From Candidatus Thorarchaeota archaeon (GTDB lineage: Archaea > Asgardarchaeota > Thorarchaeia > Thorarchaeales > Thorarchaeaceae), in NCBI GenBank assembly GCA_046482545.1, contig JAWOEX010000001.1, positions 1 through 36,716 of the forward strand: 36,716 nucleotides of DNA, given 5' to 3'. The translations under genes and the position numbers were made by a program. Position 1 is the first letter of the stretch. The number at the start of each line of letters is the position of its first letter. A model generated the notes under the pieces. That model was not told where the DNA came from. It saw only the letters and a program-made list of their open reading frames with translations, and searched no databases. This document shows positions 844 to 21,764 of the stretch, piece after piece.

Positions 844-2560
844 ATCCCACAGCGTATTTTATCGTCATTTCCCTCACTCGGAGGGACGTATTCGCAGTCG
901 TTACCTCTGCAAGACCAAAGCACCTGAATAGGATTTAAACCAAGTGTAATCTCTTTGCCAGACTTTTTTGATCTGGTTTTGAATTTCTTCAACGCATATG
1001 TGGATTGTCTGTCGGGTGATATAGTGAAAGAACTAGGTATTCCCATTGTTTTGGTAATAGCAGTCGGGTTCACAGCGAGCTCCAGAATTTCGGCCTCTAG
1101 CTGTCTTCTCGAAACCATCCTTACTTCCCACTCAACACACACTCGGGGCAATCGTGTATCTCCTAGGATACTCATTTTACGAGACGTATCTCTTAGGAGA
1201 AGCCTGCCATACAAATCACACATCAGCTCCAATGCGAGGTTGTTAATACATGAATAAATACTCTGGTAGCCTTATTAGTCTAATTCAAACGTATGGAAAT
1301 AATACTTACATATTGTTCCAAAAAATGTAGTATATGAGGAACTTGGGTTGGTCAGCCCATATCCAAAGAGCACTTTCTCGCGAAACCCTCAGTTAAATAA
1401 TCAGTATGTCAACAACTTCGACAAAGAAAGAGCCGCCTTGGAATGGCTCTTCCTGCATTCGTTACTGGATATCTTGTAGGTCTGACCGAAGTCGCACATG
1501 CTTCTCATCATGACCAAGAATAATTGAACAAGTCTGTATTTGGAAATACAGCCAGAGCTCTTATAGAGTCCCAATCTGTTAGTCTCCAAGGTGATACCCC
1601 TTGAAAGTATGTCAACTGTCTGCCATTCTACTAATTGCCGTTATTCTCCCTACTAGCCTCTGAGAACTGATTTTGGGTACTAGTCGAAAACAACATCTGG
1701 CGTTAGCACTTGTTTCTCTGCCTTGGCTTCAAGCTCTTCAACGCCTACTTCCGGTTCTAAACCCTTTCTTTTCAATATGGCGAGTAGAAGAATATTGAGG
1801 ATAAAAGCAATCAGCAGCAGTGGAAGTCCTTGGAGGAAATTATAGATTACACCCGCAATTAGTGATCCTACTGCAAGGGATAGCATTATTGCAGTTTTTG
1901 TCAGACTGAGCATTTTACCCAAGTCTTGACGAGGCAAGTATTTCTGAATATATGTATCAATGAGGCTTTGCCATAGAACATCATTGATTGATTTCATAGC
2001 CGTTGCGATAAAAGCTAGTGAAAAAATCACTTTCAAACCGGGAAATATGGTATCGACAAAAGAAACCCACGCAAGTGGGGCCGCATAGGGAATATACTGG
2101 GCAATGATGAGCAAGCCAATTGCTATGGGCATTACCGCATAGATAACTACTGTCAGTTTGTATCCCCCATTCTTGTCGAATAGATGTCCGATGAGCAGCG
2201 TGAGCGGCACTGAAATCAGTAATGTTATGAATAGAATGAGGTTGATTTCATGCATGCCGAAATCCAGCGTCTCGTTCATATAGTATAATTCTGTGAATCT
2301 GTAGAAGCTGTCACTTAGTGCGTCAACGATCAGAACCGCCAAAAACACCGGGAAGACTTTCGCCAAGAGCTTCAATCCTCGAGAATTCTCGGATTTAAAG
2401 TCCTCAAGAATATGGTCTACATCTTGTTGTCTCTCAGGTATTTTGGTTGATTTCAGTACTGTTGCCCGGATGACTGCGCAAACCGAGTATAGGATACCGG
2501 CTATAAAAAGCAGGATTCTCATCACATCTACAAATACCCCTCCAAGATTCAAGAATAGGC

Positions 2561-2630
2561 AAGTTTTACACAAATCCTAAAAAAATCCGAGTGGAAGAGT
2601 GTAAAATATCTGTAAGATTTCCTGTAAGTG
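2561..2630. repeat. Left-end array of ~11-bp-spaced TGTAARAYTT-like motifs in inverted and direct orientation (copy 1)
   Basis: aagttttaca 2561, aaatcctaaa 2572, then tgtaaaatat 2600, tgtaagattt 2611, tgtaagtg 2623. Confidence 0.7.
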
Positions 2631-2655
2631 CTACTGTGACCGAGGGCGGTAGGAC

Positions 2656-2662
2656 TTTATTA
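2656..2662 (+). promoter_or_regulatory. Putative archaeal TATA box for the element RNA (copy 1)
   Basis: GGAC(T/C)TTATTAGGCCCA is conserved in both copies within otherwise divergent sequence. It lies ~25 nt upstream of the conserved TTTCAGTAGGACTAGG where the structured region starts. Confidence 0.6.
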
Positions 2663-2685
2663 GGCCCAGTACGAAATTTCGTTTC

Positions 2686-3114
2686 AGTAGGACTAGGCAA
2701 GTGGGCTAGTGTTGTAACACGACGCACGCGGCCGAAAGCTGCAAGGAAGACTCGTTCTTCTAAACAGAAGTCCTCACTCTCCAAACAAGGGGCTTCATCG
2801 AGCTCTGGAGAGTCCGCGGCTGTTCACCTTGTCCGTAATGGACCTCCTCAGCTACGGCGACAAGGCTGAGGTGGGTGATCATGACCACGCCGTGGCAAGA
2901 ACTGTGGAAGACCTCGCTGTTGCCGGGAGTGATGACCCGGGACAACGACAGGAGACAGAAACCAGGACCGCGGGAGGAACCCTGTTCCGGTGAACGCGGA
3001 CAAAGCCCCTGCTGACTCACGGGCCTACGGGTACCGTGGGAGCGGCGATGCTGGCAGGGGAAGGGTGGAACACAGAAGTTTCATGCAGTTCCTAGAACTG
3101 TAAGAAATGGGTTA
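2686..3114 (+). ncRNA. Large structured ncRNA of unknown family, copy 1
   Basis: GC-rich stems with compensatory substitutions relative to copy 2. The cUACGg tetraloop (3025-3030) and G-U wobbles indicate the + strand. Ends are approximate. Confidence 0.8.
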
Positions 3115-4136
3115 TCAAGAGAATGCTCACGACGTAGAGGGGAACCAGACCGAGTCCCGTACCGAGAGTGAACAGACTTTGTGCTACTCCACCGAATTTC
3201 CTATCGATTTGTTCCATATAGTAAGCTCTGCCGGCTGTTCTCGTAAAAGCTGAAGCCCCGATAATTATCATTGAAACAGCAAGTGTACGAAAATCACCGG
3301 AAACTGAAAGCAAAAGGTATCCTGCAGATGATAAAGCCATAGTCCCAACAGCAATCTTTCTCCTATCGTAGTTGTCAGCGAAATACCCCGAAACGAAGTT
3401 GCCAACAAGTCTGATTCCAAAAAGAACTGAAAACAGTATCCCTATCAGAACATACGAAATGCCAATATCTCTGAAGTAAACGGCAAAGTAGCGGTCTAGG
3501 ACTAACATACTGCTGTATATCCAAACGGTAATGAGATATACTGAGCAGTTTCGTTTTGCAGTGACTCCCCTAAAGGATTCCTTCCAACCAAGACTAGTTG
3601 CTTCTGGCTCCTCTGACGCGGAGTTATCTCTCTTTTCAGTTTGGCATACTTGAGCTGCCCCCATGAAGTTACCAGCTCTGAGAAAGGGTGGGCGTGACGT
3701 TGCTTGCTTCTAGGCGAATCAGGTTGGGCATTGAATTTTCCTGAATCAGTGTGAATCTCTCACTTGATGTCCGATGAATTTCGTTTTAAAAAATTTCCTC
3801 AAACGTACTCGTGCTATAGATAGAACGGTGAACGAAAATAGAGAATAGCGGCCAATGAAGCATGTAGGGATTGGTGATAGTAAGCCACTTTCGCCATATG
3901 GCGTTAAGATATCGATCGATGTATGTAGCAAGTCTGGATGTCCAGTTTCGGCACAAAGCTAACTTTCGAGTCTCCTATCTCGTTATCCTCGGTTCTTTCA
4001 TTTCCAAACAGAAGACTAGAGAGACATTGCAGATACATCGTCTGCGAATGGCCGAAGGAGATAAGTAGGATGCTTCGAGATAGGTGATTTATCTAAGGCT
4101 CCACTTGGAGCAGAGAAAAGAAAGTAGGACAGATTA

Positions 4137-5390
4137 ATGATGACACGAAAGGTATGTATTGCTGGCGGCGCGACGACTCCCTTCGATTATCCGTTGCATG
4201 CAACACCTGAAGCGATGATAGCGAACTGTATCGTGGAGACACAGGAAGATATTCCTGACTTCACGTTACGCGATCTCGAGTTCATGGTGTACAGCCACTT
4301 TAGTGTTCACTTCGGAAAACAGCTTTGTCCGGAGTGGATAGTGCATGATCATCTCGGATTGGTTGGACTTCCCCACTTCCGAGTTGAAAACGGCGGAAAC
4401 ACAGGAGGCTCAGCTTTGTATGCGGCATTTCTGGCTGTGAAGTCAGGCATGTTTGATGTTGTAGGTGTGGCCGGTTGGGAGACTATGGATAATGTGACCC
4501 AGTCACAGGGTTCGGAATTCATCGCACTGGCTTCGGATACGAGGTATGAAGCCTTGGCTGGAGGGATTTATCCAATCTACTATGCAGCTATGGCTTACAA
4601 GTTCATGAAAGAACATGACTTGACCGAGGAAGACTTCGCTTTGGCAGGCATGAAGAATCGTAACTATGCTTGTGACAATCCGAAAGCACAATGGCACAGA
4701 AATGAGAATGAGAAAATCACTGTTGATGATGTAATGAATAGCAGGCTGATCAGCTATCCGCTGAAGAAGTATGACTGCTGCTTGATGAGTCGCGGTGGTT
4801 CATTTGCTCTTGTGACATCCGAAGAATGGGCGAAGGAGAATGCTGATGGAAAATATGTAACTATCGATGGCGCTGGTTTGAGCAGCTGTACGATTCGAGC
4901 AGGTGACAGATTGGCGTTTCCAGGTTGGACAGAAATGTACGGTGAAGGTTATCCCGATATGACGGAATTCGGTGCTTGCCGGAAATCTGGTGAAGATGCC
5001 TATGATATGGCCGGGATTGAGTATGACAGAGCAGCAAAAGAAATCGATGTTGCTGAGATTCATGATGCTTTCTCATCGTCTGAAACTCAGATTTACAAAG
5101 CACTTCATTGGTGTGACAAGGACAATATCAAGGACTTCGTTCGCAACAAGCGGACTTTCATGGAAGGAGATCTTCCAGTCAATCCTGGTGGAGGTCTCAT
5201 GGGCTTTGGTCATCCAGTTGGTGCCACAGGCATTATGTCAGCGATAGAGTGTTACTACCAGCTAACTGACATGATACCGGACAAGCATCTCAGCTCAGAT
5301 ACGTATGTCAGAGATGCGGAGACTGGTCTTGTGAACAGTCACGCAGGAACTGGCACGAGTATATCCAACTTCATTCTCAGGAGGCCATAG
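4137..5390 (+). CDS. Thiolase-fold (SCP2-thiolase-like) protein lacking the nucleophilic Cys
   Basis: KNRNYACDNPKAQ, PLKKYDCC, EIHDAF and VNPGGGLMGFGHPVGATG motifs. RVENGGNTGG replaces the usual E-x-A-C-A-S-G. Confidence 0.9.
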   Translation: MMTRKVCIAGGATTPFDYPLHATPEAMIANCIVETQEDIPDFTLRDLEFMVYSHFSVHFGKQLCPEWIVHDHLGLVGLPHFRVENGGNTGGSALYAAFLAVKSGMFDVVGVAGWETMDNVTQSQGSEFIALASDTRYEALAGGIYPIYYAAMAYKFMKEHDLTEEDFALAGMKNRNYACDNPKAQWHRNENEKITVDDVMNSRLISYPLKKYDCCLMSRGGSFALVTSEEWAKENADGKYVTIDGAGLSSCTIRAGDRLAFPGWTEMYGEGYPDMTEFGACRKSGEDAYDMAGIEYDRAAKEIDVAEIHDAFSSSETQIYKALHWCDKDNIKDFVRNKRTFMEGDLPVNPGGGLMGFGHPVGATGIMSAIECYYQLTDMIPDKHLSSDTYVRDAETGLVNSHAGTGTSISNFILRRP

Positions 5391-6133: not shown

Positions 6134-6442
6134 ATGGAACGTTGGAAAGTATCAAATACTTGCGTCTATAATTTAGGTTATCATTTGATATGGTGTCCTA
6201 AATATAGAAGGCCAGTATTAGTTGATGATATTGCTGGGAGGCTAAAAGAACTCCTACGGGAGAAAGCATCTTCAATATCTGTATCAATTAAAACGATGGA
6301 GATATTGCCTGACCATGTTCATCTTTTTGTTAAGACGGTTCCGAATGCTCCACCCCATTGGATTGTACAACAACTGAAAGGTTATACTTCGAGAACATTA
6401 AGACAAGAGTTTTCTTCATTATTGAAAATGCCAACTCTCTGG
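6134..6442 (+). mobile_element. tnpA: Truncated IS200/IS605 Y1 transposase
   Basis: YNLGYHLIWCPKYRR, HUH motif DHVHLFV and LKGYTSR..PTLW. Similarity stops before the catalytic Tyr helix. The segment is AT-rich. Confidence 0.9.
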
Positions 6443-6962
6443 AACAACCTTTGGACTCTTCCATATTCTGATAATGGCAGCTCTCATATTTTGTGGACTG
6501 GGCGACATCGCCATGGAATACGATATTTTACCGGGCCTGGGACTTTTTCTAATTGCTCATATTCTCTTCACAGCAAACTTTGGATTTCACAGTCTGGCCA
6601 ATCTAGGATTGGTCCCTATTCTTGCATTTATTCTGGCTATGATTTTTCTTTCTTGCTATATTTTGTTCTTTCACAAGTATCTCCAGGGTGCAGACGAACC
6701 GACGGAATTACTCCCGGGTGTGGACGTTTACGCAATTCTTATTTCGCTGACTCTTGGGTCTTCTCTACTTCTTTGGCTGTCTACTGCTACCATGTTGGGA
6801 TTTCTACCTCTTTTGGGAGCAGGTTTCTTCATCTTCTCGGATTCGCTAATCGGTGTGCGAGAATTCCATCATAGATTCAAATACGATGAAACGCTCACTA
6901 TGATTACTTATTATCTCGCGGTCTTCCTGTTATCACTTGGAAGTATTGTGTACGCTCTCTAA
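6443..6962 (+). pseudogene. 5'-truncated YhhN/TMEM86 (lysoplasmalogenase-like) membrane protein
   Basis: ALIFCGLGDI..GLGLFLIAHILF..GAGFFIFSDSLIG..MITYYLA are YhhN motifs. The N-terminal helices are missing and replaced by the tnpA fragment. Confidence 0.75.
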
Positions 6963-7034: not shown

Positions 7035-10000
7035 CTAATCCATGCCGTCGAGTAAGACATCAATCTCTGCCTTGGTCAATCCTTCCGCATTCTCCATTAT
7101 GAGATCTATTTCATCTTCCGCGATTCCCAGTTTCTCAAGGCGCTCTCTTATATCCGCGAGTTCCTGTTTTGTGACTGTTTCTTTCTTCTCTTCTTCGTCC
7201 TTCTTCTCGCTTATTTCTTCAGCGCGCCTTGCCTTTTCCTGTGTGATAACTTCCATGACAAATCCTGGTCTCTCAGATGGCTTCATTCGGAACAGGTCTT
7301 GACGAAATGCATCGACATCTTCTTCGGTGAGGCCAGTGATTTCAGCGAGTTCGTCTAGAAGATCCTCGATTTCGGGGGCCTCTGATATGATGGTCTCTTC
7401 CGGAACCTCATCTATAGGCTTCTGGATATTGTAAACGCTCAGAGATTCATTAATCATATTCTGGAGCATTTCATCTCTGCGAGAGACCTCCGGAGCATCG
7501 GGTACCTTTCCGCGAGATACATCCTTAATCATTCCATTGAGCCAGCGAATCATTTTCGGGACACTGAAAACTTTCACATACAGAAGAGCACCAATGAGCA
7601 GCAAGATTATTGAAGCACTACCACCCAAGGTCAAAGCTGTCATGAGTGGGTCTTGGGTTTGCGGGGTTGCTACAACGGTGATAGTAACCTCCTGGCTCTC
7701 GTAGTTGTTTCCTTTTGATGCACGTATAGTGATATCAAAACTGTAGTCAACAGGAACAACAAATTCGATAATGTAGGTTCCCTTTTCGTCTCCCTCAGTT
7801 ATGGTATAGTCTTCCTCCTTGATGAGTAACTCTGCCTGTTCAACAACGATTTGTGCATCGCTGATGGGTAGGTCATGATCAATATCGAGGAAATCAACAC
7901 TGAATTGAATGGTTTCACCAACTATGGTTTGAATATATGGGTCACTCGGCGAGAGCTCAGTTTTGATTCTCCTTACAATCACAGTAACTCTTGCCGTTGC
8001 GGTAGTGTAGTTGGTTTTACTCAATTCAATCTGAGCAGAATATGTACCTAATGGGATGTTGTCTGGAATCGCAACTGAGTAGTTTCCCTCTTCAGTGCTA
8101 TTTAGAGCAATCACGCCAAATGACCAAGTGAACGAACCTACGGCGGTGGACACAGGCTCATCGTAATATGTGTCATTGTAGAATGCACTGATGGTGTACG
8201 AGTCGCCAACCGGTATTTCGTAGAGATCTGCGACAATCACCTCAGTTGGTATCTTCGATACCTCTAATGTCACAGAGGTTGTTCTTGTAATGTAGTTGGA
8301 TTTAGAAGCGCTAACAAGAACATCATATACGCCCGGTCCAACATCATTACTATCCAATGCAAGACTGTACAACCCATTTCCGATTTGCTCTGCGTTTCCT
8401 CGTCCCGAAATCCATCGAAACTCAAGTGTAGCATTCTCTATGCTCCTGTTGTAGTACTGATCACTGAAATTGAACCAGAATGTTGCTGACTGCTGATGTA
8501 CGATTGTCAGTGTGGTGTTCAGCGGTGAGAGCACGCTTTGTATCGGTGAAATTTCCGCTAGTATGATTGCCGTGCCGGTTTCGTATCCTGGTTTACTGGC
8601 AACGACATAGATTGAGAATGAACCTGCTCTGAACAGAGAGCTGTCAAAGCTGCCCTCGTAAATTCCTGGCTCGGTTTCCGTAAGTGTACCGTTGTAGTTA
8701 GCGTCACCAAAGCGGAATCGTGTATTTGCATTGCTTACAGGGACACCACTTTTTTCATCTGTAAAATTCAGGTTCAAGTGAACCTCTTCTCCGTAGACTG
8801 CCCGCACTGTTGCTTCTCCGATAGGAATGAGATTTGTCTCAACAAGTTTAACATCAAGACTTAGGTAGAGGCTTGCTTGAGCATGGTTTGACTTGTTTGC
8901 CCTAACGTAGAGCGTGTATACATTAACTTCGGCACCTGTAGTATTGATAGTGGTAGTGTAGACGCCTGGGGTTTCAGTCGCTGTCAGAACTCCTTCACCG
9001 TAGTCCCAGAGATACGATATTGTTGCATCCTCTATTCCCGTATCATTAGTGTCAACACAATAGTGCACAGTGAGATTGACAGGCTCTCCACTCGAAATGC
9101 TGTACGAGTATTGTTCGTCAGCGGTGCAGAGATCAGTTTCAAGTACTGACAGCACCAAGGTGATTTGCAGCATTCTACTTTCATAATTCGTCTTGTTTGC
9201 ATTGACCGTCACTGTATGTGTACCGATATCAACGAACGAGGTGTTGATTGTTCCGTTGTATGTTGTTCCATCGAAGTCTAAGTTGAACACCTCTCCCTTG
9301 AGAGTGGCTGTGACAGTTGCATTCTCTACTGGTACTTCCGGGTATTCCTGTTGGTACCAGACTGCCAAATGGAACGGATCACTCCAATTTAGCGTCACCG
9401 CGGTACTTTCTGGTTCTAATCGGGTTATCACTTGTTTAAGATCGATGTCTACAGTGAGGGAAGCACCACTATAGTCTTCTGCATCAGCAGATATATCATA
9501 GGTATATGTGCCGTACGGTGATTCCCATAGTAGGAATGTAACATTGTACTTACCGTCTCCTGTCGGAGAGAATATTGCTTCTGGGGTGCTGGGATTAGTG
9601 TATATCTCTGCTCCAACCACCAGTATATCATGGTCAATATCCTCATACTCGACAATGACAGAAACGTTCTGACCTGCAACTCCAGAGGTATCCGAATCAA
9701 TACTCATTGAAGTGCGAATTTCTCTGACTCTGAATTTCACCTTCGCACCAGCGTCGCTATGTAGATCTTTAGTGGCTGTGAAAGTAACTTCATAGCTGAG
9801 AGTGTTAACATTTTCTGTGAACAAAGTAACAAGAAAGCCACCCGTTGAGCCATGTGTCCAGTTCCAGCCATAGTCCCAGTCGGTCGACAAATTGGCTTGC
9901 GTGACATTGATTTCATGATCGGTATCGCGGTATGAGAGTTCAAGCGTTACGTTATCTCCTACAGGGACGATACCCGGTTCAGGAGGAGTAGCGCTGGCTG

Positions 10001-13000
10001 ATGTTGATATGAATCTGATAGTGATTGACACAGTCGTATCCTTAATTGCATAGAAGGACTTATTCAATGTGAACTGGATTTGATACTTGCCAACAGATGG
10101 AACGCCATCGGTTTCCAAGGTGACATTCAAACTACCATCACTCAGTTCCTTGTACGACCATCCATAGGTCCACGAAGTTTCGATACTGGCATTAGATATC
10201 ATCAGGTCATGGTCGAGATCCAGATATGCTACTCTTATGCTTACATTGTCTCCGACCGGTACAATTCCGGGATCTGGGGCGTCTGTAGTAACTTGGGTAT
10301 AGACGTTTCTTACAGTTGCCCTGATTCCGGTATCGTTGATAGCGGGGTAATAGGGTATGGCGGTCTCATTCCAAACCACATCGATTTCGAAATACACATC
10401 ACCCACATAATCGAACTGCGAGCTGTTGATGGTAAAGCTGTATACCCCAGCATCTGGATAATCCAGAGTATAAACGAGTTCCTGACCAGTAGTCTCATTC
10501 AGGGTGGTAAAGGAGATGAATACATTGCCGCTTTCATTGGATATTCCTTTGTCATTCACGCTATCCCGATATTCAAACTCAATCGTAATATTGTCACCAT
10601 GTGGTGTGTGTGCAGGGGGGGTATACGTCAGAATAGCATTCGCTCCAGTGACGGAGACATCGAAATCTAAGGAGCGGTTCGAATAGAATGGAGCGCCGAG
10701 TACCCAGTTGAAGCTCGCTTGGAAAGTGAATTGTCCCGTTGCGTTGAGCGCTGTGACATTTATTGACATTACAAATTTTCCGGGTTCGGTTTCTTCAATC
10801 CACCAAGGAACAGAGATATTTGTTGTAATTCTGATACCTTCTTCAGTTGTGTTTGTAACTGGCTCCTCAGAATCTCTGTCCTCAAAATAGAAAGTCACGG
10901 TCGCGTTATCACTGTAGCTTGTCTGCGCGATTGGTGCTGTTGTTAATTGGGTATTCCGGGCCCGAACATCACTATCAATCAGTACCGTCTGATTCTGATA
11001 GTGTGACTCTGTCATTCCACTTACTGAAATCGTGAGAATATAATGGCCTATAGTCTCAAGCTTCGATGTATTGACACGAAGCTCGTACTGTCCTTCACTT
11101 GTCGATGATATGGAATAGTAGGAAGAATCCACCGGTGTACCGTTAACTGCGTCTAGACTGAAGTAGGATTCTGCATCTGTTATGCCCGTGAGCCCGGCAT
11201 CAACGTCAGTGTATTCCAGTTCTACTGTCATATCATCTGAATATGGTGTTTCAGGAGGTACCACATAGGTCAATCTGGTTGCCCTTTCTCGAACCTGAAC
11301 CGTAAGTGATTTGCTTCTGTTCGCATAGAATGGTTCTCCATAGTACTCTGCTGATACATCTACTGAGAATTTTCCGATGTTCCCAAGAGCAGTACTGTCA
11401 ATACGGGCCGTGTAGTCACCAGCACCGTGATCCTCGACCCAGTAGTTAATTTGCTTCACTAGGCTCTCGTTTGCATCTGTGCTGATAAGAGTGAAGTTGA
11501 CTCCAGGCACGCCTGTGGAGTTTTCAACTCCTTCAAAATAGAAGGTAATGGTAACATTATTGAGATAGGGTGTCCTCCCCTGCACCTCGTAAATCATTTG
11601 AGTTGGTCTCTGGAGGACTCTGCCTGTAATCGACCTTGTTGTTGTATTCGCCCAATAGTAAGGTGTATTCGGATAGATGAACCTGATGTCCAAACCATAG
11701 TCGGAAAGCTCCCCCAGTATTCCGGTATCGAATGAAACATTGTAGTTACCCGATCCCATGTCAACAATCGAAATGGCACTATCATCAACATCTTCTGGTT
11801 GTGTAAAGGTTACTGATAGGTTCTGCTGCATGTTTTCGAGGCCGGTACCATCGGTTCCGTTATCCAAATCAATCAAAGTGACCGTGAACGAAACCTTGTC
11901 AGCATAGTATACGGACTGGGGTGGCTCTATGCTTAATTCTACATTGCGATGCTCAACCCGAACTTGAATTGACCTACTCCCATCAGATAGCCACCATTCA
12001 GACGTGGAGTTCAACTTGACCTCTAAGTAGTACTTGTTGGGCTCACCCAGTGCTTCGGTACTTATGTTTAGCAAGTAATCGCCATCACCCAGATAGGTGA
12101 ACCAGAAGTTGCTGTCTTGAACGAGGTCTTCTGCAGAGGTTGCACAAGAGAGATACAACTCCGCGCTCGAAATTGGGTCAGCGGGATCCGAATCGATATC
12201 AAGATAGGTCAGATTGAAAGTCATGAAGTTTCCATAAGCTACCCCGGGGACAGAGCTATAATCAAGCGTGGTTGTTCGTTCGTCTACGGTGCCGGTTACA
12301 TTCCTAGACACCAAGGAGTAATAGGGGCCAGTTGTGGTGTGATTGAAGACGACTCTGACTTTGTAGGATCCAACGCTTCCCAAACTCGAAGTGTTAAAAC
12401 TAACGCCATACTGTCCGTCCGTTCCACTCAGGTATTCCACAGTGGGGGTCCCACTGGCACCTTCGGGCAAGAGAATCTCGACGGAGATGTAGCTAGCATT
12501 GTTGTTTATGTACTCGAGTGAATGAGAGTCTTGAAGGACGAACGAGAAATTTACATCTTCCAAGTAGGACACTGGTAGCGGAAAGTCAATGTCCATATTG
12601 GCGATTCTATATTCAATAGTGACTGAAACACTTACATCTGTCTGGTTCTCATAGAATGGAGTTCCTGACCAGATGACTTCCAAGTCAATCGAGTTTACGC
12701 CCAGCATATCAGTTTCCTTAGTCATTATTTCAACTGTGTAGAAATCTTCTGCAGTTGGAGTGTAATTCACGGAGTATGTGTATCCGCCTAGGACCGTAAT
12801 ATTGAGAGGTGCGCCAGTTACTAATTGGCTCTCGTTATCGAGGTCTACATACTGTAGGAACAGCGTAAGATTATCTCCATATGGCACAGGATCGGCTTTT
12901 ATCTGGGATATTGCTGTATCTCGAACCCTAACATGTATTGATACGCGTCTGTCAATTTGGTCTTGGTAGTATGGTTCTTGGTCAGGGTAGGTCCAGTTGA

Positions 13001-16000
13001 GAGTGATTTCAAAACGGTACGTTCCACATGCATCGAGATAGGTGGTATTGAGGAGCAAGAAGAACGTTGCATAAGTTCCTGTATCTGCTCCTTGAACGAT
13101 ATCAATTATCGCAGAGTCTGAGGTATTGAGTCCTACCTGATCTAGCGATACGACAGTAGCTGTTGCATTATCTCCAAGTACCACGTCGACAGGATCACCG
13201 GAATCGCTATCACCCCAGTAGAATGTTAAATTCGCTTGATTGCCGAAGGGAACCGGGTCTAGTGGATCCCAGCTAAACTCGGTTTGGGTTCCCCTGACCT
13301 CGAATCCTACTGAAATACTTTGATTCTGGAAGAATGGTGCCCCCGAGAATGTCATATTGATTTCTATATCAGTCACCACAAATGGGGTGAACTGGCTTGC
13401 CGGCATCTCGAGAATATACTCTCCAGGCGTTGCACTGGGTGAGACATAATATTCCGAACTATTCGTGGTTAATGTAATAGCACCCTCGTAAGTCGTATTG
13501 TCGATTGCAGCACCATCGTTGTCGGAGTCGGCATATTGAAGGATTACAGTTACATTATCTGTGTAGCCAACACTCGATATAGGATCATAGGTGAGCAGTG
13601 TATAGCGGTGTCTTACGTAGATTTTCGTGTATATGGTTGCATTCTTGTAATTCCCTAATTCACCAGAATTCTGCGTTTCAATTTTTACCCACACGTTTCC
13701 TATTGAATCCAAAGCTGAGGTATTCACTTCAACAGTGTAAATCCCTTCACCGTTATCAGTAATCATCCAACTTCCTGTGAGTGAGCCATTGACCACGACT
13801 AGGCTAGCGTTAGTTATTGTTTCACCGGTGCTAAGGTCCAAGTACTTCAATTCGAATGTAGCATTAAGGCCATATCCTGTGCTCTCTGGAGCGGAATACA
13901 ATTGCAGTTCTGTAGAGTGCCGGCTGATTGTAATTGAGACCTGTAATTCGCTGCTACCGTAGTATGGAATGATATAGTCATAGGTTACGTTGATGAATAG
14001 AGCATGAGTTCCTACCTCAAGGGAGTTGGGCAAGATGAATCTGTATGCATTCAGGTTTTCATCCCAATACGCAGTGGGTTCGCCTAGGTCCGGATTAGAC
14101 GCGTTTTCTCCTGCAAGTCCGATATGCAATCCACTAGTGGAATTCCTTACAATATCTGTAGTCTCGCCGTCTGTAATATGAATTGTAAGCTCAATATCTT
14201 CCTCATATGGAGTGCTTCCGGCTGGATCTGAGGTTAGAACAAGAGATCGATACTTCACCTTGAAGGTGAAGGTTGTGGAGGCATCGCTTTCATATCTTGA
14301 TCCCAAATACGTGGCAGTAGCTGTTAGTTGATAGGAGCCTGGTTCTAGGAACGCTGTAGTGTTGAGTTCAACCGTGTATGTGCCGTCTCCGTTATCCACA
14401 ACTGTATAATTACCACTCAAGGTTAGGTTTGGGTTTGTTATGCTGATATTGTTTCCATCCATGCCAATACTCGTGTCATCAATGAGGTCGGTGTAAGTCA
14501 GACTGAAAGTGACGTTACTGTTGTAGAAGGTGGGAACTGGTGCTGTGTAGGTGAGTTGTGTAGGCCGTTCAGTTATCTTGAGCGAAACGCTTTTGGTCTG
14601 GTTTTGATAGAATGGCGGTCCTGTCCATGTAATGTTGAGCTCAAGTGAGAATGTTCCCGTACTGCCTAGAGAAGCTGTATCAACAGTTATTGTCCACTTT
14701 CTGGTGGAACTACTGTAACTCTTGTTGTAATCAACTCCTAGATTGTTCAGCTGCACATAGAGTTCTGTAGAATTCTCGATTTTTGTGTTGGTTGGTGAGT
14801 CGTAGTACGCGAAACTGAATTCCGCTATTTCATCGTATGCAGTGTTCTGTGGCGGTGTTACATCCACAAGAGTTGTTCGAACTAGAATAGTTACTGTGAT
14901 GTCCAAGGTTTGATTCTGATATAGTGGATTCACATTCTTGCTCCAGTTCATCCAAAGACGGATGCCCATCTCGCCGCAGGTTGTTAGGCGGGAGGAATTC
15001 AACAAAATCCGATAGTGACCTGGGAATTCGTTCCTGTCAACTTCTGTGATGTTGAAATCAGATGAGGTGACAGGCTGTCCAGATGTCAGCATTTCTGCTC
15101 TTCCCCACACATCCCCTGTATCGTTGATTATACCCTCTCCAGTTTCCGCAATCTTGTACAGCAATGTGAAGTTGATTAGATCACCATAGTATACAGCCTG
15201 TGGGCTAACAGCCACGGTTAAGTCTGTGTCAGTGCCTGTTATTTCTACTGTGAAACTCTCGGTCAGGTTCTGGTATTTCAACGAACCAGTCCAATTAAAG
15301 TAGACAGTGAAGTTATATTGCCCTGTCCCGCCAAACTGGTCGGCAGGAATCAACACTTTGTAGTGGCCATCTCCGAGGTCGGTATTGGGCTCTACATACC
15401 ATATCGCTGAAGTGTTGTATTCGTTTTCAACATCAACTTGCACTTGGCCTGTGTCATTAGTGATGCCCTTAGAGAGTGAAAGGTCTTGGTAGAACATGGC
15501 AGCTGTTATGTTGACACCATAACCGGTATCTGTGACTGGTTCGTCAAAGGTTAAATAGGTTGAATGCGCCTCAATTTTCACCGTGATTTCAACGGACCCG
15601 CTTTCGTAATTCTGTCTGGTCACATTGAATTCAACGGTATAGGTGCCTAGTGTTGTATTGTCAAAGGTTAGCAGCTTGATGTCGTAGATTCCATCATTAT
15701 CATCATCAGATATCTCAACTCCTTCGGTCCAGTTGTGTGCGATGGTAGCATTCTCAACATTGATATCATGATCGACATCCTTGAACTGTAAGGTGAATGT
15801 AAGATTGGTATCAAGCGGTACGTTGAAATTGTAGCCTGATGCCAAAACATTCGTTTCTATGTATCTAACGGTGAATCTGACGGTGGTAGTTGCATTCTCG
15901 TAACCATCTCTTACACACATCGCAACAATTGTATAATCGCCGATATCGAGATTAGAGGTATTCATCTTAACTCTGTAGTGACCTTCACTCAGCCAAGTTA

Positions 16001-19000
16001 CCCAGAAATCTGTACCATTTTCGTATTGGGTGTCGTTTAGATAAAGGCTACTGAAATTGACCTCTAAACCATCGAGATCACGGTCTCTGAAAGTTATCTC
16101 GAATGTGAGGTTATCACGATAAGGAACTGGGTCTGGAGCAGGGGCATAGGCTTCAGTGTATCGTCTCCTGATTTCAATTGTGAGAGAGGCCTCGCCATCA
16201 TTGAAGAATTTGGTTTGGCCTGAGCCCGAAGTCAATACTTCTACCTGTTTACTGAATAACCCGACATTCCAATCGTCGGTATCAACAATGACTGTGAAGT
16301 TTCCGTTATCGTACGCCCATGTGGTAATCTCTTGTCCATCAATCACGATTTTGGTAACATTATCTGAGCTGATTATTGTTGAGCTGTCACTTATGTCAAA
16401 TATCCTAATCCTTACCGAGGTGTTATCTGACCATGGCGTTGACGCAGGGCGTATTGCTTCCACGCTGATGCTATGGCTGACAATTGAGACACTTCCGGTT
16501 GTCGAACTATCTGTGTAGTTCTTTATGGGGTCAACAAAGGATACTTCGAATACAAACAAGTATTTTCCAATGGACTTGTCAGCAGTATAGAGCGTTAAGC
16601 TAAACGTTCCTGCATCATAGCTGAAATCACTGCTAGTGTAAGTGGTTCCATTAACCGTCAAAAAGTCGATTTGAGCAAGCGGGACGACATTTGATTCATT
16701 GTCGAGATCAGTTATGGTTACATCTACTGTTGTATTTTTGCCCCAGCCCCTCGGTGATACAGGTGAGAATGTGAGTTGTGTTTTGTGCGCTCGAATGGTG
16801 ATATTTACCGTGGTCTCGTCATCGGTATAGAACTTGGTGTCATTCGAGTCCGTAGTGACTAGCGAGACGTTGAGCGAGGAAGAATCTACCATCCAATTCT
16901 CAGTGTAAAGGTCCACCACGAGCCGTGCCTGGGTATCGACCACTGAGTAAGTCCATTTTGAGGCGGTGAAATTTTCACTCCCGATTAACAGATAGGATAT
17001 GTTTGATTCTGAAATGACTTGATTGGAATTGTCCAAGTCACTCAAGTAAACCAATACTGTAGTGTTGCTGCCCCAAGGCGTGTTTACTTCTTGAGTCTGG
17101 GCAGTAACTAATAGGTTGTGCCGACGAATAGATAAGAAAACGTCTGAGTCAGCATCATCGTAATACTTGGTTGATCCACTGCCAGCTGAGTAGAGCTGCA
17201 CATTTTCTCTAACTTGGTCCTGAATTGGCCAGCTCGTCGTATCGTATATGACTGTGAGCTGAGCATAGCCTTCTTTCTGTTCGTATGTCCAAGAAGAGCT
17301 GGTAAATGTCTGGTTGCCGATTTCAACAGAACTGAGATTGCTTTCTGAAACTACAAGTGAGGAATTATCTAGGTCAGTGATTTCCATAACAATTGTTGTG
17401 TTCATCCCCCATGGTGTGGGTTGGGGTGTTCTGACACTTAGCTGTAACAGATGTGATCTGATGGTGATGGTTATCTCGCCACTAGCATCAGCATATAACT
17501 TGGGACCAGAAGTGGTGACAATACTAACATCATAAACACCCGAGCCTATAGCCCAGCTTCTAGTATCCACTGTCACCGTGAAAACACCATCGGAGAAAAT
17601 CCAGTCCGAAGCACCGAATGTCTGGCTTCCGACGGAAATCTGAGATATGTTACCCGGCCCGATCTGGTTATTGGGGTGGTCAAGGTCCTTCAGTGTCAGA
17701 GAGACGTTTGTTTTCCAGCCCCAGGGTGATTCATCAGGGTGATAGACGGTTGCCATAGTATCGTGTGCCCTTACTGTAAAGTCGACATCAACTGAACCAT
17801 CTTCGAAGAACTTGGATGCGCCGTCCCCTTCTGTGTAAACATCTATTGTAATCGCATATGTGCCTACGTTCCAGGCATTAGTGTCCAAGGTGAATACGAT
17901 GAAAGCAGCTTCAGAACCAGTATTATATGTCCAGTTTTCTGACGTAAAGATTTCAACTCCATATGATGAAGTTAGTTCAATCCTGGAAAAATTAGACTGG
18001 TCGATTATTTGAGAAGCGTTGTCAAGGTCCTGTATTGTTAGATTGAATTCTGTGCTGTTCCCCCAAGGTGTTTCTCTTGATGGGAATGTTGAAACACCTG
18101 TGTGATGGGCTCTCACAGTCACTGACAGCTCCTTGGACTGTGTTTGGTGCCCGGTTGCTGAGCAAAGTACATTCATTGTGTATTCACCGGGCTCAACACC
18201 GCGAGTATTGAGTGTCACTTGCCAAAAACCAAGCGTGGAGTTATACTCGGGTCCTACGAGCGATCCTCCAGTCTGCTCAGCCCAATCTATTTCTACTGCG
18301 ACTTCGGGAGCTGTATTGTCTATCGGTCTGGCTGCTACAAAACCCAGAAAGTCTAGATTGTACTGGAAATCAGTTGTATGCGTGGCATTGATACGAATCC
18401 GCACTAATCCTAAAGGTGATACAAACTGGGACGCAGAGAGGGTTCTCCATGTTTTAGTGACGTCCTCCGTTGATGAATAATCGGTTATGATTGACATCCA
18501 ATTCGCTGAGGAATAGTTGTAGACTTCGACCAAGCCTGATACGCCTGAAGTGTTGTAGTGCCCCTCAACCTTGTACGTCAAGGAGACCATATCTGAAGCA
18601 CTGAGACCGTAATCTGTAATATTTGTCTCACCAGTTAGAGAAATCTCAGCTCCCTCGCTACTTATGTTGACATAGTCATTGTTCGAGGAATAAGCTGCAT
18701 CTTCTTCAGGATCATTAGGAAGACCCGGATTAGCTGTTAACTGGCTGGGTTTCATGGCTACTTCATCATCGTAACTAAGAGCGATTTGCTTTGAATTACC
18801 CCAGGCGATGTCATAGTCTACACGCTCGCGTCTGTCCCCTAGGTGAACTATGAGATGGGTTCGCTCTTGCACTTCAACAGAAATTGATGTGGTTTCAACG
18901 AAGTCATAATACTCCTTGGTAACGTTTGTCGTTATGTCGTAGGTCCCTATGGATGCAAGTGAGGTATCGAGTGAACCTGCATACCATCCATTGCCTGCAT

Positions 19001-20867
19001 ACCCCATTGAGCCAGAACCGAACGTCCAGTTGTAATAAGCAGTACCACCGGATATCCCTAAACCCGTCTCAAGATCAACAAAGCGAATTCTGACCGAGAC
19101 TGGGTCTCCTCTATATGTCTGATACACTGCTGATTCTACTTCTATCGTGGTGTGGTGATTGATTGTGAACTGACTTTCTATCTCTCCCACTGCAGTACCG
19201 TTACTCCAAGATGCCGATACAACTATTGAACCTGGAAGCCAGCTTGGTAGAACAGTGATATTTGAGTTATCTGTCCCATTCTGGAAAGTGCAAATGCCGT
19301 CTACGTCAAGTGATTCATCTGCTTCAGCATATATGAGTGAATTCTCAGAATCGTAGAAACTCAGACTCGCATTCCCTTCCGTTGCAGGCGGATTTCCGAG
19401 GCTATCACTGAAACTTGTGTTGATCCTCATTCTGGAATCTGGATAGTAGGTACTTGCTTCGTACCACCCATCATTTTCTCCCTTCCAGAATGAGATTGTA
19501 CTTCCATAGTTCGGAGACGTCGAACTAATCTCCCACTGTCCATAGTGCGGTGTACCGCTTTCCCCAGTTCCAGCAACATCACAACTGAGTACACTTGTGG
19601 TTTCATCATAGCTCGCATTGTATTCGGTTGAATCATTTAGTTGCACTATATCGAAACCATCTAGCACTTCTACTGGTGTCCAATCGTCAGGCATTGATAC
19701 GTTGAAGTGTCTGTAGATGAACGGGTCACCCATCTCACCAACAAAGAAGTCAGAATCCCAGCTCACATTCGTCTCGGATGCTATACTGTATGTATTAGAA
19801 TCCAATTCTGTAAGTCGAGTTATTGGAGCGAATAAATCTAGTGTGAATTCTGTACCTGATTCATTAGCCAGGAATTCCAGTGTAATCTCATCGTTCCATG
19901 AGCCGTCGAGCGTAGCGTGTCCCTTGCCATCTTCTCCGAATGTGAACGGAACAACGTTGGATATATTGTTGTTATCCCGTACTCTTAGGTTTACGGCCTC
20001 GGGTTTCTGAGAAGTTCTCAGTGTCAAACTTACGTCATCACAATACAATACACCATCAGTTTGGAATTGAGTGTCAGCAAAACCTCGTATCCCGAATGCA
20101 ATATCCAAATCCCCTGGAAATGTATAGTCTGTTGGGTCTAATTCGAGTGAATACTCCTTCCAGTCTTGGTTAGATGAGAATCGGTTACCTTCTGTTGGCA
20201 GTTCATAAAGACTCCCGTTGACATAGACATACGGCATTGCATTTTGACCGTTCTGACCGGTTGAGGTAGTTATACGAAATGTCACATTTAGGTGTGCAGA
20301 AGCTGTCCCGCCTTCGTCTATGTTAACCGTCTGGTTCCAAGAACCCCAGTGGTCATAGCCTATATTTCCTCCAGATTTTCTCGTAATTCTGATCATCTCA
20401 TCTTCATACTCCTCAGACAATACGTTCTTCGGATCGACTTCATATTTATTCCAGCCAGATATGGTTGAAAACTGACCATTTGTAACCCAGTCTTGAAGAT
20501 GGTACATTTCAGAACTGGAAGCAGTAATCTGAGTAGTAGTCCAACCAGTCGGGAGGTCATATGTTTCAGGATAGAATGTGTTACTTTCATTAGCTCTCGC
20601 TGTTCTCGGGTTGTATTGCCCTTCTGAGTACTCGATTACTGATAGAAGGCTGCCGCTGCCCGAGGCAGATACAGAGGAGCGGTCAACCATCTGGTCTTCT
20701 ATCTGTTCAATGCTTACAGGATCGGCATTGTAATCCTTTGGTGTCGTTGATTTTTCACCCTCTCCAACGGAGAACAGCTTTTGATTCATGCTGCCAAGGA
20801 AAATTGGTGCACAAAACACTAGGATCACTACTAAGACGCATCTATGATACTTCTTCATTGAAAACAC
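7035..20867 (-). CDS. Giant (4610 aa) single-pass cell-surface protein with tandem Ig-like beta repeats
   Basis: Signal peptide (MKKY..VLVVILVFC; ATG 20858 is a likely start). Tens of ~100-115 aa repeats (T-x-L..G-x-N-x-T..Y-x-D-x-D..G-x-Y..T..G-x-Y), many N-x-S/T sequons, a C-terminal TM helix (~7570-7645) and a charged cytoplasmic tail. Confidence 0.9.
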   Translation of the reverse strand: MFSMKKYHRCVLVVILVFCAPIFLGSMNQKLFSVGEGEKSTTPKDYNADPVSIEQIEDQMVDRSSVSASGSGSLLSVIEYSEGQYNPRTARANESNTFYPETYDLPTGWTTTQITASSSEMYHLQDWVTNGQFSTISGWNKYEVDPKNVLSEEYEDEMIRITRKSGGNIGYDHWGSWNQTVNIDEGGTASAHLNVTFRITTSTGQNGQNAMPYVYVNGSLYELPTEGNRFSSNQDWKEYSLELDPTDYTFPGDLDIAFGIRGFADTQFQTDGVLYCDDVSLTLRTSQKPEAVNLRVRDNNNISNVVPFTFGEDGKGHATLDGSWNDEITLEFLANESGTEFTLDLFAPITRLTELDSNTYSIASETNVSWDSDFFVGEMGDPFIYRHFNVSMPDDWTPVEVLDGFDIVQLNDSTEYNASYDETTSVLSCDVAGTGESGTPHYGQWEISSTSPNYGSTISFWKGENDGWYEASTYYPDSRMRINTSFSDSLGNPPATEGNASLSFYDSENSLIYAEADESLDVDGICTFQNGTDNSNITVLPSWLPGSIVVSASWSNGTAVGEIESQFTINHHTTIEVESAVYQTYRGDPVSVRIRFVDLETGLGISGGTAYYNWTFGSGSMGYAGNGWYAGSLDTSLASIGTYDITTNVTKEYYDFVETTSISVEVQERTHLIVHLGDRRERVDYDIAWGNSKQIALSYDDEVAMKPSQLTANPGLPNDPEEDAAYSSNNDYVNISSEGAEISLTGETNITDYGLSASDMVSLTYKVEGHYNTSGVSGLVEVYNYSSANWMSIITDYSSTEDVTKTWRTLSASQFVSPLGLVRIRINATHTTDFQYNLDFLGFVAARPIDNTAPEVAVEIDWAEQTGGSLVGPEYNSTLGFWQVTLNTRGVEPGEYTMNVLCSATGHQTQSKELSVTVRAHHTGVSTFPSRETPWGNSTEFNLTIQDLDNASQIIDQSNFSRIELTSSYGVEIFTSENWTYNTGSEAAFIVFTLDTNAWNVGTYAITIDVYTEGDGASKFFEDGSVDVDFTVRAHDTMATVYHPDESPWGWKTNVSLTLKDLDHPNNQIGPGNISQISVGSQTFGASDWIFSDGVFTVTVDTRSWAIGSGVYDVSIVTTSGPKLYADASGEITITIRSHLLQLSVRTPQPTPWGMNTTIVMEITDLDNSSLVVSESNLSSVEIGNQTFTSSSWTYEQKEGYAQLTVIYDTTSWPIQDQVRENVQLYSAGSGSTKYYDDADSDVFLSIRRHNLLVTAQTQEVNTPWGSNTTVLVYLSDLDNSNQVISESNISYLLIGSENFTASKWTYSVVDTQARLVVDLYTENWMVDSSSLNVSLVTTDSNDTKFYTDDETTVNITIRAHKTQLTFSPVSPRGWGKNTTVDVTITDLDNESNVVPLAQIDFLTVNGTTYTSSDFSYDAGTFSLTLYTADKSIGKYLFVFEVSFVDPIKNYTDSSTTGSVSIVSHSISVEAIRPASTPWSDNTSVRIRIFDISDSSTIISSDNVTKIVIDGQEITTWAYDNGNFTVIVDTDDWNVGLFSKQVEVLTSGSGQTKFFNDGEASLTIEIRRRYTEAYAPAPDPVPYRDNLTFEITFRDRDLDGLEVNFSSLYLNDTQYENGTDFWVTWLSEGHYRVKMNTSNLDIGDYTIVAMCVRDGYENATTTVRFTVRYIETNVLASGYNFNVPLDTNLTFTLQFKDVDHDINVENATIAHNWTEGVEISDDDNDGIYDIKLLTFDNTTLGTYTVEFNVTRQNYESGSVEITVKIEAHSTYLTFDEPVTDTGYGVNITAAMFYQDLSLSKGITNDTGQVQVDVENEYNTSAIWYVEPNTDLGDGHYKVLIPADQFGGTGQYNFTVYFNWTGSLKYQNLTESFTVEITGTDTDLTVAVSPQAVYYGDLINFTLLYKIAETGEGIINDTGDVWGRAEMLTSGQPVTSSDFNITEVDRNEFPGHYRILLNSSRLTTCGEMGIRLWMNWSKNVNPLYQNQTLDITVTILVRTTLVDVTPPQNTAYDEIAEFSFAYYDSPTNTKIENSTELYVQLNNLGVDYNKSYSSSTRKWTITVDTASLGSTGTFSLELNITWTGPPFYQNQTKSVSLKITERPTQLTYTAPVPTFYNSNVTFSLTYTDLIDDTSIGMDGNNISITNPNLTLSGNYTVVDNGDGTYTVELNTTAFLEPGSYQLTATATYLGSRYESDASTTFTFKVKYRSLVLTSDPAGSTPYEEDIELTIHITDGETTDIVRNSTSGLHIGLAGENASNPDLGEPTAYWDENLNAYRFILPNSLEVGTHALFINVTYDYIIPYYGSSELQVSITISRHSTELQLYSAPESTGYGLNATFELKYLDLSTGETITNASLVVVNGSLTGSWMITDNGEGIYTVEVNTSALDSIGNVWVKIETQNSGELGNYKNATIYTKIYVRHRYTLLTYDPISSVGYTDNVTVILQYADSDNDGAAIDNTTYEGAITLTTNSSEYYVSPSATPGEYILEMPASQFTPFVVTDIEINMTFSGAPFFQNQSISVGFEVRGTQTEFSWDPLDPVPFGNQANLTFYWGDSDSGDPVDVVLGDNATATVVSLDQVGLNTSDSAIIDIVQGADTGTYATFFLLLNTTYLDACGTYRFEITLNWTYPDQEPYYQDQIDRRVSIHVRVRDTAISQIKADPVPYGDNLTLFLQYVDLDNESQLVTGAPLNITVLGGYTYSVNYTPTAEDFYTVEIMTKETDMLGVNSIDLEVIWSGTPFYENQTDVSVSVTIEYRIANMDIDFPLPVSYLEDVNFSFVLQDSHSLEYINNNASYISVEILLPEGASGTPTVEYLSGTDGQYGVSFNTSSLGSVGSYKVRVVFNHTTTGPYYSLVSRNVTGTVDERTTTLDYSSVPGVAYGNFMTFNLTYLDIDSDPADPISSAELYLSCATSAEDLVQDSNFWFTYLGDGDYLLNISTEALGEPNKYYLEVKLNSTSEWWLSDGSRSIQVRVEHRNVELSIEPPQSVYYADKVSFTVTLIDLDNGTDGTGLENMQQNLSVTFTQPEDVDDSAISIVDMGSGNYNVSFDTGILGELSDYGLDIRFIYPNTPYYWANTTTRSITGRVLQRPTQMIYEVQGRTPYLNNVTITFYFEGVENSTGVPGVNFTLISTDANESLVKQINYWVEDHGAGDYTARIDSTALGNIGKFSVDVSAEYYGEPFYANRSKSLTVQVRERATRLTYVVPPETPYSDDMTVELEYTDVDAGLTGITDAESYFSLDAVNGTPVDSSYYSISSTSEGQYELRVNTSKLETIGHYILTISVSGMTESHYQNQTVLIDSDVRARNTQLTTAPIAQTSYSDNATVTFYFEDRDSEEPVTNTTEEGIRITTNISVPWWIEETEPGKFVMSINVTALNATGQFTFQASFNWVLGAPFYSNRSLDFDVSVTGANAILTYTPPAHTPHGDNITIEFEYRDSVNDKGISNESGNVFISFTTLNETTGQELVYTLDYPDAGVYSFTINSSQFDYVGDVYFEIDVVWNETAIPYYPAINDTGIRATVRNVYTQVTTDAPDPGIVPVGDNVSIRVAYLDLDHDLMISNASIETSWTYGWSYKELSDGSLNVTLETDGVPSVGKYQIQFTLNKSFYAIKDTTVSITIRFISTSASATPPEPGIVPVGDNVTLELSYRDTDHEINVTQANLSTDWDYGWNWTHGSTGGFLVTLFTENVNTLSYEVTFTATKDLHSDAGAKVKFRVREIRTSMSIDSDTSGVAGQNVSVIVEYEDIDHDILVVGAEIYTNPSTPEAIFSPTGDGKYNVTFLLWESPYGTYTYDISADAEDYSGASLTVDIDLKQVITRLEPESTAVTLNWSDPFHLAVWYQQEYPEVPVENATVTATLKGEVFNLDFDGTTYNGTINTSFVDIGTHTVTVNANKTNYESRMLQITLVLSVLETDLCTADEQYSYSISSGEPVNLTVHYCVDTNDTGIEDATISYLWDYGEGVLTATETPGVYTTTINTTGAEVNVYTLYVRANKSNHAQASLYLSLDVKLVETNLIPIGEATVRAVYGEEVHLNLNFTDEKSGVPVSNANTRFRFGDANYNGTLTETEPGIYEGSFDSSLFRAGSFSIYVVASKPGYETGTAIILAEISPIQSVLSPLNTTLTIVHQQSATFWFNFSDQYYNRSIENATLEFRWISGRGNAEQIGNGLYSLALDSNDVGPGVYDVLVSASKSNYITRTTSVTLEVSKIPTEVIVADLYEIPVGDSYTISAFYNDTYYDEPVSTAVGSFTWSFGVIALNSTEEGNYSVAIPDNIPLGTYSAQIELSKTNYTTATARVTVIVRRIKTELSPSDPYIQTIVGETIQFSVDFLDIDHDLPISDAQIVVEQAELLIKEEDYTITEGDEKGTYIIEFVVPVDYSFDITIRASKGNNYESQEVTITVVATPQTQDPLMTALTLGGSASIILLLIGALLYVKVFSVPKMIRWLNGMIKDVSRGKVPDAPEVSRRDEMLQNMINESLSVYNIQKPIDEVPEETIISEAPEIEDLLDELAEITGLTEEDVDAFRQDLFRMKPSERPGFVMEVITQEKARRAEEISEKKDEEEKKETVTKQELADIRERLEKLGIAEDEIDLIMENAEGLTKAEIDVLLDGMD

Positions 20868-21450: not shown

Positions 21451-21640
21451 CGTGGCTTTCTTTACGGGTAGGCCTTCTCAGAACACAGAGATACAGGCCG
21501 GTGTTTGGTGTTATCAGGTCTCTATTATGATATAAAATAAAGATGTTAACATGCATCCCATGTCTCTGTCAGTGCCAACCAATCAATATCTCTTTTGTGT
21601 AAAGATGGAAACCCTCATGTTTTCCAGTTCAAGAAAAGGC

Positions 21641-21708: not shown

Positions 21709-21734
21709 ACTATTTTCACGTCGAACGAGGGGAC

Positions 21735-21741: not shown

Positions 21742-21764
21742 GGCCCAATATGAGACTTGATTTC

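Follow-up and report, generated by a model that had tools for sequence, protein, structure and literature searches.

Asgard archaea carry loci in which tnpB lies beside a gene for a Cas1-like protein, aCas1. Altae-Tran et al. (2023; PMC10691335) described such loci (Cas1H-Asgard-1 and Cas1H-Asgard-2) with a GTTCACTCA motif downstream of tnpB, proposed that aCas1 (credited there to Makarova et al. 2020) is a transposase, and proposed that a variable stretch downstream of tnpB is a spacer-like guide. The same paper reports stand-alone omegaRNAs, which are guide-RNA cassettes in the same genome as effector loci. The window analysed here is a whole stretch of 36,716 nucleotides (nt) from a Candidatus Thorarchaeota archaeon (assembly GCA_046482545.1, contig JAWOEX010000001.1, positions 1 to 36,716), and it contains two protein-free cassettes of about 570 to 580 bp. 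These cassettes are internal-deletion derivatives of an aCas1-TnpB element resident in the same genome. The parent is of the published Asgard kind, so far described in silico, because the motif that Altae-Tran et al. placed downstream of tnpB is present in copy 2. We consider it probable that the cassettes are non-autonomous derivatives, similar to miniature inverted-repeat transposable elements, of a Thorarchaeota aCas1-TnpB transposon, acting through the full mechanism proposed below.

Like the published loci, the parent has a Cas1-fold giant gene beside tnpB, repeats in its flanks, and GTTCACTCA after a variable stretch downstream of tnpB. The main text of PMC10691335 treats protein-coding loci only, whereas here there are RNA-only derivatives with their own promoters, a TC-NN-GA core at the element ends, a 430-nt RNA structure, and a leader RNA with its own pairing and guide logic. 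These features add to that main text; the aCas1-TnpB kind itself was already known in silico. An earlier note on this window had taken the cassettes for a candidate undescribed RNA-based mobile system, and that description gives way to one of deletion derivatives of a known kind of element.

The two copies (2549-3120 and 21629-22210) are colinear and 80% identical over 594 nt (E 6e-151). Their identity starts at the left TCAAGA and stops no more than 4 nt beyond the right one (2549 and 3115 in copy 1, 21629 and 22205 in copy 2), in agreement with the shared boundaries noted earlier. Core, phased repeats, TATA-like box, ~430-nt RNA, and second core were all found in the order first proposed. 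As the earlier note had stated, long terminal inverted repeats are lacking, and the only inverted sequences are short, imperfect subterminal motifs (TCTTACA/TGTAAGA) ~11 nt inside each end. The features of the two copies and of the gene split by copy 1 are as follows.

1680 to 2554, minus strand: 3' half of a major facilitator superfamily (MFS) transporter gene, with intact orthologues in 5/5 relatives
2549 to 2554, plus strand: left TC-NN-GA core of copy 1 (TCAAGA), present once in the reconstructed empty site
2555 to 2628, plus strand: left end of copy 1, with the inverted motif at 2561 and phased TGTAAG at 2600, 2611, and 2623
2645 to 2689, plus strand: putative promoter of copy 1, with a purine-rich tract resembling a B recognition element (BRE), TATA-like TTTATTAG at 2656-2663, and a spacer
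2690 to 3115, plus strand: ~430-nt RNA of copy 1, a predicted TnpB omegaRNA or scaffold like a trans-activating CRISPR RNA (tracrRNA); the parent RNA is 87% identical, with covariation and metatranscriptome contigs
3099 to 3115, plus strand: right end of copy 1, with the TGTAAGAAA motif and terminal GGGTTAT
3115 to 3120, plus strand: right core of copy 1 (TCAAGA)
3116 to 3135, plus strand: host flank that would be a cis guide if transcription read through the right end, judging from the leader-RNA register (GGT(T/C)AG, then guide)
3121 to 3664, minus strand: 5' half of the MFS transporter gene interrupted by copy 1 (Pfam MFS_1)
21629 to 21634, plus strand: left core of copy 2 (TCAAGA)
21635 to 21707, plus strand: left-end repeat array of copy 2, 86% identical over 58 nt to the parent left end
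21725 to 21768, plus strand: putative promoter of copy 2, with TATA-like CTTATTAG at 21735-21742
21769 to 22205, plus strand: ~435-nt predicted scaffold RNA of copy 2, to which the parent RNA is 88% identical over 362 nt
22160 to 22182, plus strand: anti-repeat of copy 2, with complementarity to the leader RNA of tnpB; it comprises the 5' arm of the terminal hairpin and, at 22174-22182, the GTTCACTCA loop
22205 to 22210, plus strand: right core of copy 2 (TCAAGA)

Excising copy 1 together with one hexamer in silico restored a single open MFS frame of 474 amino acids (aa). The intact orthologues in two sister species have a single hexamer-like site, with TTCGAG as the counterpart of the copy 1 core. 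For the copy 2 empty site, no alignment was obtained in relatives. Over 77 nt, the left end of copy 1 shares 82% identity with that of an 8.3-kb parent (G000 C28:141692), and the repeat array of copy 1 is a putative transposase-binding site. The RNA of copy 1 begins with the conserved GGACTAGG at 2690 and ends in a 3' hairpin that lacks the GTTCACTCA loop. In both window copies the first ~250 nt of the RNA are a frameshifted, start-less remnant of the C-terminal coding tail of tnpB. The earlier statement that the cassettes have no conserved open reading frames is thus only partly right.

Left ends without an RNA and RNAs without a left end were both traced to elements of ~8 kb, the longer, TnpB-coding versions with the same ends that the earlier note had suggested looking for. 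Their order is left end, giant gene (on the reverse strand), leader, tnpB, RNA, and right end, with the same ends as the short copies and matched TC-NN-GA cores. Three examples are:

G000 C28:133385-141692: parent element, TCAGGA at both ends, with the aCas1 gene at C28:136446-141473
G000 C20:228517-236753: parent element, TCTGGA core
G001 locus L130: parent element, TCTGGA core

The giant gene encodes 1400-1960 aa and tnpB 545-620 aa, and the two are divergent in 28 of 40 fetched loci. This TnpB clade was found in 53 of 85 family genomes. The two aspartates of its RuvC domain are present, the glutamate of RuvC-II is replaced by glycine, and there is an alternative glutamate that is conserved, which is the rearrangement reported for clade RIIr-5 (PMC10691335). 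In all tnpB-linked loci examined, the RNA overlaps the 3' end of tnpB (the last ~90-105 codons). Several loci (L043 at 3467-4141, L059, L060, L133, L136) have an additional gene of ~220 aa immediately upstream of the giant one, and it belongs to no known family.

Pfam, NCBIfam, and the ESM Atlas did not recognize the giant protein, and Foldseek matched only a RecA-like domain. We compared parts of an AlphaFold model (predicted local distance difference test score 85) with known structures. In the model, residues 1-254 match Cas1 (8flj; Z 12.9, root-mean-square deviation 3.8, 176 residues aligned) and the N-terminal domain also matches the casposase 6opm (Z 10.9). Residues 272-608 resemble the MGME1 nuclease (Z 8.7) and residues 634-884 are RecA-like (Z 12.4). 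Of 64 homologues, at least 90% keep E74, H186, and D196. Residues ~1053-1235 of the protein (P0001), in its C-terminal half, may form another helical domain of Cas1 type, in degenerate form; the matches were weak (Z 5.2-5.8), and the top six were all to Cas1.

On the basis of this model, the giant Cas1-fold protein is our candidate for the mobilizer of the short copies. The earlier note had proposed a recombinase acting in trans; a trans-acting candidate was found, though of another type. Profiles for serine, tyrosine, and IS110 recombinases, reverse transcriptase, and canonical Cas1 had no match in this 98.9%-complete genome. For the IS110 DEDD recombinase, PF01548 gave zero hits in the genome, and the RNA is instead linked to tnpB. 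The tyrosine recombinase family PF00589, without a match here, was present in all 14 control genomes. The parent resembles casposons in its Cas1-fold candidate transposase. Casposons have a family B polymerase, terminal inverted repeats, and a 14-27-bp target duplication. None of these three features is seen in the gene content and ends of the parent, and unlike casposons it carries TnpB and RNAs.

The family is far larger than the two copies first noted. There are eighty-four RNA matches in this genome, of which forty-four are full length (thirty-seven short copies without tnpB and seven linked to tnpB), and many copies are truncated. Family matches occur in twenty-five of thirty-six genomes of the same family and in none of twenty-four genomes from other families. 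Where relatives of the linked proteins are named, most bear the label Thorarchaeota, in line with a thorarchaeal host. RNA-only, promoter-bearing short forms occur in at least four genera. The earlier picture of a non-autonomous, protein-free cassette with fixed ends and a TATA-like promoter of its own holds for the short copies, which lack tnpB and share the ends of the parent.

Across thirty-five two-ended copies, the hexamer is TC-NN-GA, of which TCAAGA is one instance. The copies lie at dozens of unrelated sites with this loose target, and the label 'site-specific' used earlier was too strong. The two central positions (NN) agree between the left and right ends of a copy at rates of 0.83 and 0.91, against 0.31 and 0.44 between copies, while left-right matching at the other core positions is little above chance. 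NN is shared with the nearest left-end neighbor at a rate of 0.51 versus 0.18, and it is strand-biased (AA 12, TT 3, although AA and TT are equal in the genome). These three properties of NN (end-to-end agreement, the link to left-end lineage, and strand bias) suggest that the element brings its core along and that this core is matched to the target, not simply duplicated. Copies and loci are kin, however, and the permutation, Fisher, and core p-values given here and below overstate significance. When core inheritance was compared with relatedness at the 3' end instead, the result did not reach significance (p 0.07). A longer duplication of 10-12 bp, hinted at by four copies, was considered and dropped, with overall matching at chance (1.94 vs 1.84 of 6, p 0.30).

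In another genus the right-end motif and the left-end repeat have changed together, with TGTCAGA at both ends. Two further arrangements of the ends were seen. At G000 C20:181316-182445 and C28:231782-231841 there are head-to-head fused copies with one common left core and tiny palindromic remnants of the right end only. In a long-element subgroup (L047, L132, L134, L148), the right end adjoins a tRNA gene that lies on the other strand, with the 3' end of the gene facing the element.

The plus strand of 2680-3120 folds at z = -2.8 relative to shuffles, versus -0.9 for the minus strand. In Rfam, the check proposed earlier, there was no match at gathering score (best E-value 0.82). Compensatory changes occur in 69 of 93 consensus pairs across fifty-two loci. 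Overall, 92% of cells are paired, against 38-45% with slid partners, and the non-coding 3' part gives a similar figure (89% vs 37-47%). Within the short copies, pairs are kept by 51% of shared variants but only 23% of private ones (Fisher p 2e-4), with the limit that some shared variants may stem from unsampled autonomous parents. The RNA in short copies is under structural selection, as the earlier note had supposed. A kissing loop between an internal AGTGATG loop and GTTCACTCA was also considered and rejected, since no compensation was visible by eye.

The short form breaks exactly at the 5' boundary of the RNA, with a TATA-like box 26 nt upstream. Such a motif occurs at the copy 1 position in thirty of thirty-seven short copies (by a permissive pattern with no chance control). 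Short forms in three other genera have other left ends and promoters, with the same GGACTAGG breakpoint and a TATA-like box 25-28 nt upstream. The RNA family is transcribed. Metatranscriptome contigs from four runs in three salt-lake studies reach a depth of 100-1000 over 2761-3062. Depth is 7-43 in the bin that includes the promoter and the start of the RNA, 0-6 across the left end, and 0-2 across the two parts of the MFS gene. These depths are summed over paralogues and do not resolve strand, transcript ends, or copy of origin, and missing contigs over the MFS halves are not proof of silence. The RNA is probably a scaffold (omegaRNA) for TnpB, to which it is predicted to bind, and it exceeds typical TnpB omegaRNAs in size.

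In almost all intact loci, tnpB is preceded by a unit of ~95 nt. Its parts are, in order, a promoter, a hairpin, a GAGTGAACTC-containing repeat, GGT(T/C)AG, and ~13 nt, after which come a motif resembling a Shine-Dalgarno sequence and then the start codon. The repeat can pair with the arm of the RNA 3' hairpin and its GTTCACTC loop, with compensatory cases in L119, L136, L137, and L140. The predicted leader:RNA duplex is stronger for a locus's own pair (-21.3 kcal/mol) than for permuted pairs (-18.7 kcal/mol). In addition, the 3' 13 nt of the leader match the locus's own promoter at 12 or more of 13 positions in 76% of fifty loci, compared with 1.4% of cross pairs, and the promoter match is directly preceded by the consensus CTT(A/C)AT. 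We infer that the leader may act like a crRNA, loading on the scaffold and keeping TnpB bound at the TATA box of its own promoter. TT(A/C)AT would be the target-adjacent motif (TAM), provisionally because part of the upstream motif may be a BRE.

This arrangement differs from the proposal in PMC10691335, in that the variable stretch behaves here as a hairpin arm and anti-repeat. The published hypervariable spacer appears better explained as the hairpin arm and anti-repeat for the leader, and the leader data would correct the published guess on where the guide lies. With the parent leader, the predicted duplex is -29.8 kcal/mol for copy 2 and -11.5 kcal/mol for copy 1. The anti-repeat loop is lost in thirty-one of thirty-seven short copies, including copy 1, and is kept in copy 2. 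Leader-like units without tnpB, with other sequence after them and possibly trans guides or remnants, were also seen on the minus strand at G000 C38:60478-60550 and C34:44594-44643.

The closest parallels to the leader are RNAs that autorepress CRISPR systems, namely the long tracrRNA of Cas9 (PMC8730458) and the crRNA-like RNAs CreR and those of mini-arrays (10.1101/2023.03.10.532045, 10.1101/2023.03.03.530964). Like these, the leader appears to combine a repeat-like segment with a short guide complementary to its own promoter. Unlike them as described, it belongs to a TnpB transposon without a CRISPR array, and its repeat would pair in trans with the 3' hairpin of the omegaRNA. A limited literature search, covering abstracts, found no report of a crRNA-like autorepressor leader for TnpB.

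In the mechanism we propose, the giant protein, with its Cas1-fold N-terminal domain and E/H/D triad, would bind the TGTAAG arrays and act in trans to mobilize the short copies. The two bases at the centre of the core (NN) would travel with the element and would have to match the target. The RNA would be a natural single guide for TnpB, its 3' hairpin representing anti-repeat, loop, and repeat. The leader of the tnpB mRNA would invade this hairpin through the GTTCACTC loop and provide a ~13-nt guide to the tnpB promoter, where TnpB would repress its own operon without cutting. Short copies would contribute highly expressed scaffold. With the loop missing from most of them, these would still bind TnpB while no longer pairing with the leader, and could serve either as decoys or as flank-guided stand-alone omegaRNAs. 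A more specific version is a two-RNA TnpB circuit with a parasite, in which TnpB swaps guides by hairpin strand invasion and so represses its own promoter, the Cas1-fold protein moves the element by a core-matching step of a kind not known for Cas1, and the loop-less miniatures with their promoters spread as their plentiful RNA titrates TnpB away from autorepression. We put this version forward tentatively and think it more doubtful than not.

If the mechanism is correct, it would place a Cas1-type transposase outside casposons and provide a Cas12 relative that uses a scaffold and a separate crRNA-like RNA, a living model of CRISPR parts assembling in mobile elements. The analysis defines the element ends exactly, gives a consensus for the target and a natural substrate of 570 bp, sets out the boundaries and fold of the RNA, and adds an inferred TAM and evidence of RNA expression. 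Both aCas1 transposition and two-RNA control of TnpB are thereby made directly testable.

Several points weigh against the proposed mechanism, in addition to the kinship of the copies, the possible unsampled parents, and the pooled transcript depths mentioned above. Transposition by aCas1 is a prediction, and a Cas1 fold and conserved residues do not amount to activity. Serine recombinases give lineage-linked, strand-biased 2-bp cores, and such cores are not known for Cas1. The genome also encodes other transposases, namely four intact ones of the IS5-like DDE type and one of the Y1 type. A related clade has the giant gene alongside both an IS607 TnpA and another TnpB, and there the giant protein may be cargo. 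The decoy role of the short copies, finally, is a conjecture. As a separate observation, IS5-like DDE loci lie at G000 C29:586, C4:41034, C9:315436, C18:7974, and C22:70580; the broken one on C22 abuts a truncated RNA copy.

One alternative is that the short copies are ordinary stand-alone omegaRNAs, whose flank guides let TnpB cut empty alleles and home as in IS605. The RNA does extend to the right end like all TnpB omegaRNAs, the aspartate, alternative glutamate, and aspartate of RuvC are conserved, and stand-alone omegaRNAs that work in trans are known (PMC10691335). The cassettes also resemble stand-alone omegaRNAs and IS200/IS605 derivatives in being mobile guide-RNA cassettes without effector or transposase, with effector loci in the same genome. 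They differ from IS200/IS605 derivatives in their Cas1-type candidate transposase, in having repeat-array ends and a matched hexamer core in place of hairpin ends, and in lacking a TAM at the empty site. The inferred TAM precedes none of the thirty-five empty sites (including that of copy 1), and IS605-style homing is therefore unsupported. No right-end guide has a TAM-flanked match in the genome above 12/20, and, given a core common to both, a filled site can be told from an empty one only by the sequence upstream of that core. We regard homing as unlikely.

A second alternative keeps the same RNA and ends but assigns mobilization to an IS607-type serine recombinase acting in trans, lost or unassembled here, with the element a derived IS607 and the giant protein its cargo or a partner of TnpB. 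This family shares with IS607 its phased direct repeats at the ends, the lack of long terminal inverted repeats, a matched central dinucleotide that is lineage-linked (core positions 2 and 5 show no such excess of matches), and a rearranged-RuvC TnpB with glycine for glutamate as in RIIr-5. TnpA also adjoins giant genes in twelve of thirty resolvase loci of the family. Against this, PF00239 had no match in this genome, both sister species, G003, G008, and G032, all of them copy-rich. No TnpA was found in any of the forty fetched loci of the clade, and none lies between the left end and the giant gene. The core of IS607 is a fixed GG, whereas NN varies here inside TC..GA. A fixed GG is seen in the TnpA-bearing clade:

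L094-L107 (e.g. G010 C18, G036 C21, G021 C7): TnpA tail to tail with the giant gene, with a divergent TnpB-like gene of ~700-740 aa

The left end in that clade starts with GGG and has TTGGACA repeats, and nothing there matches this RNA. With TnpA confined to a clade with other ends, we dropped it as the mobilizer, and rate a lost IS607-type recombinase as quite unlikely.

It is also improbable that the short copies carry their RNA only passively, as a remnant with an inherited, decaying structure that stays because transposition needs the right end. Private mutations break pairs in 77% of cases, many copies are truncated, and the anti-repeat loop is missing in most, all as expected of decay. 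The breakpoints, however, coincide with the RNA 5' end, several genera whose left ends differ have a TATA box at about the same distance, pairs are kept by shared variants, and transcript cover is deep. The idea that the cassettes are self-splicing introns or IStrons, silencing their insertions through the RNA, is largely refuted: despite a large structured RNA beside TnpB and some insertions within genes, there is no group I or II match in Rfam, copy 1 runs antisense to the MFS gene, two of three clear intragenic copies are antisense, and the internal promoter puts 140 nt of the element outside the RNA.

The rest of the window includes a 246-aa Y1 (IS200-like) transposase gene at 6134-6874 on the plus strand, the sole one in the genome and unlinked to the element ends. 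A 4610-aa open reading frame (ORF) at 7035-20867 on the minus strand has weak MG2 and filamin-like matches and probably encodes a large surface protein. Positions 34364-36682 hold a 772-aa ORF with Ig-like/MG4 matches.

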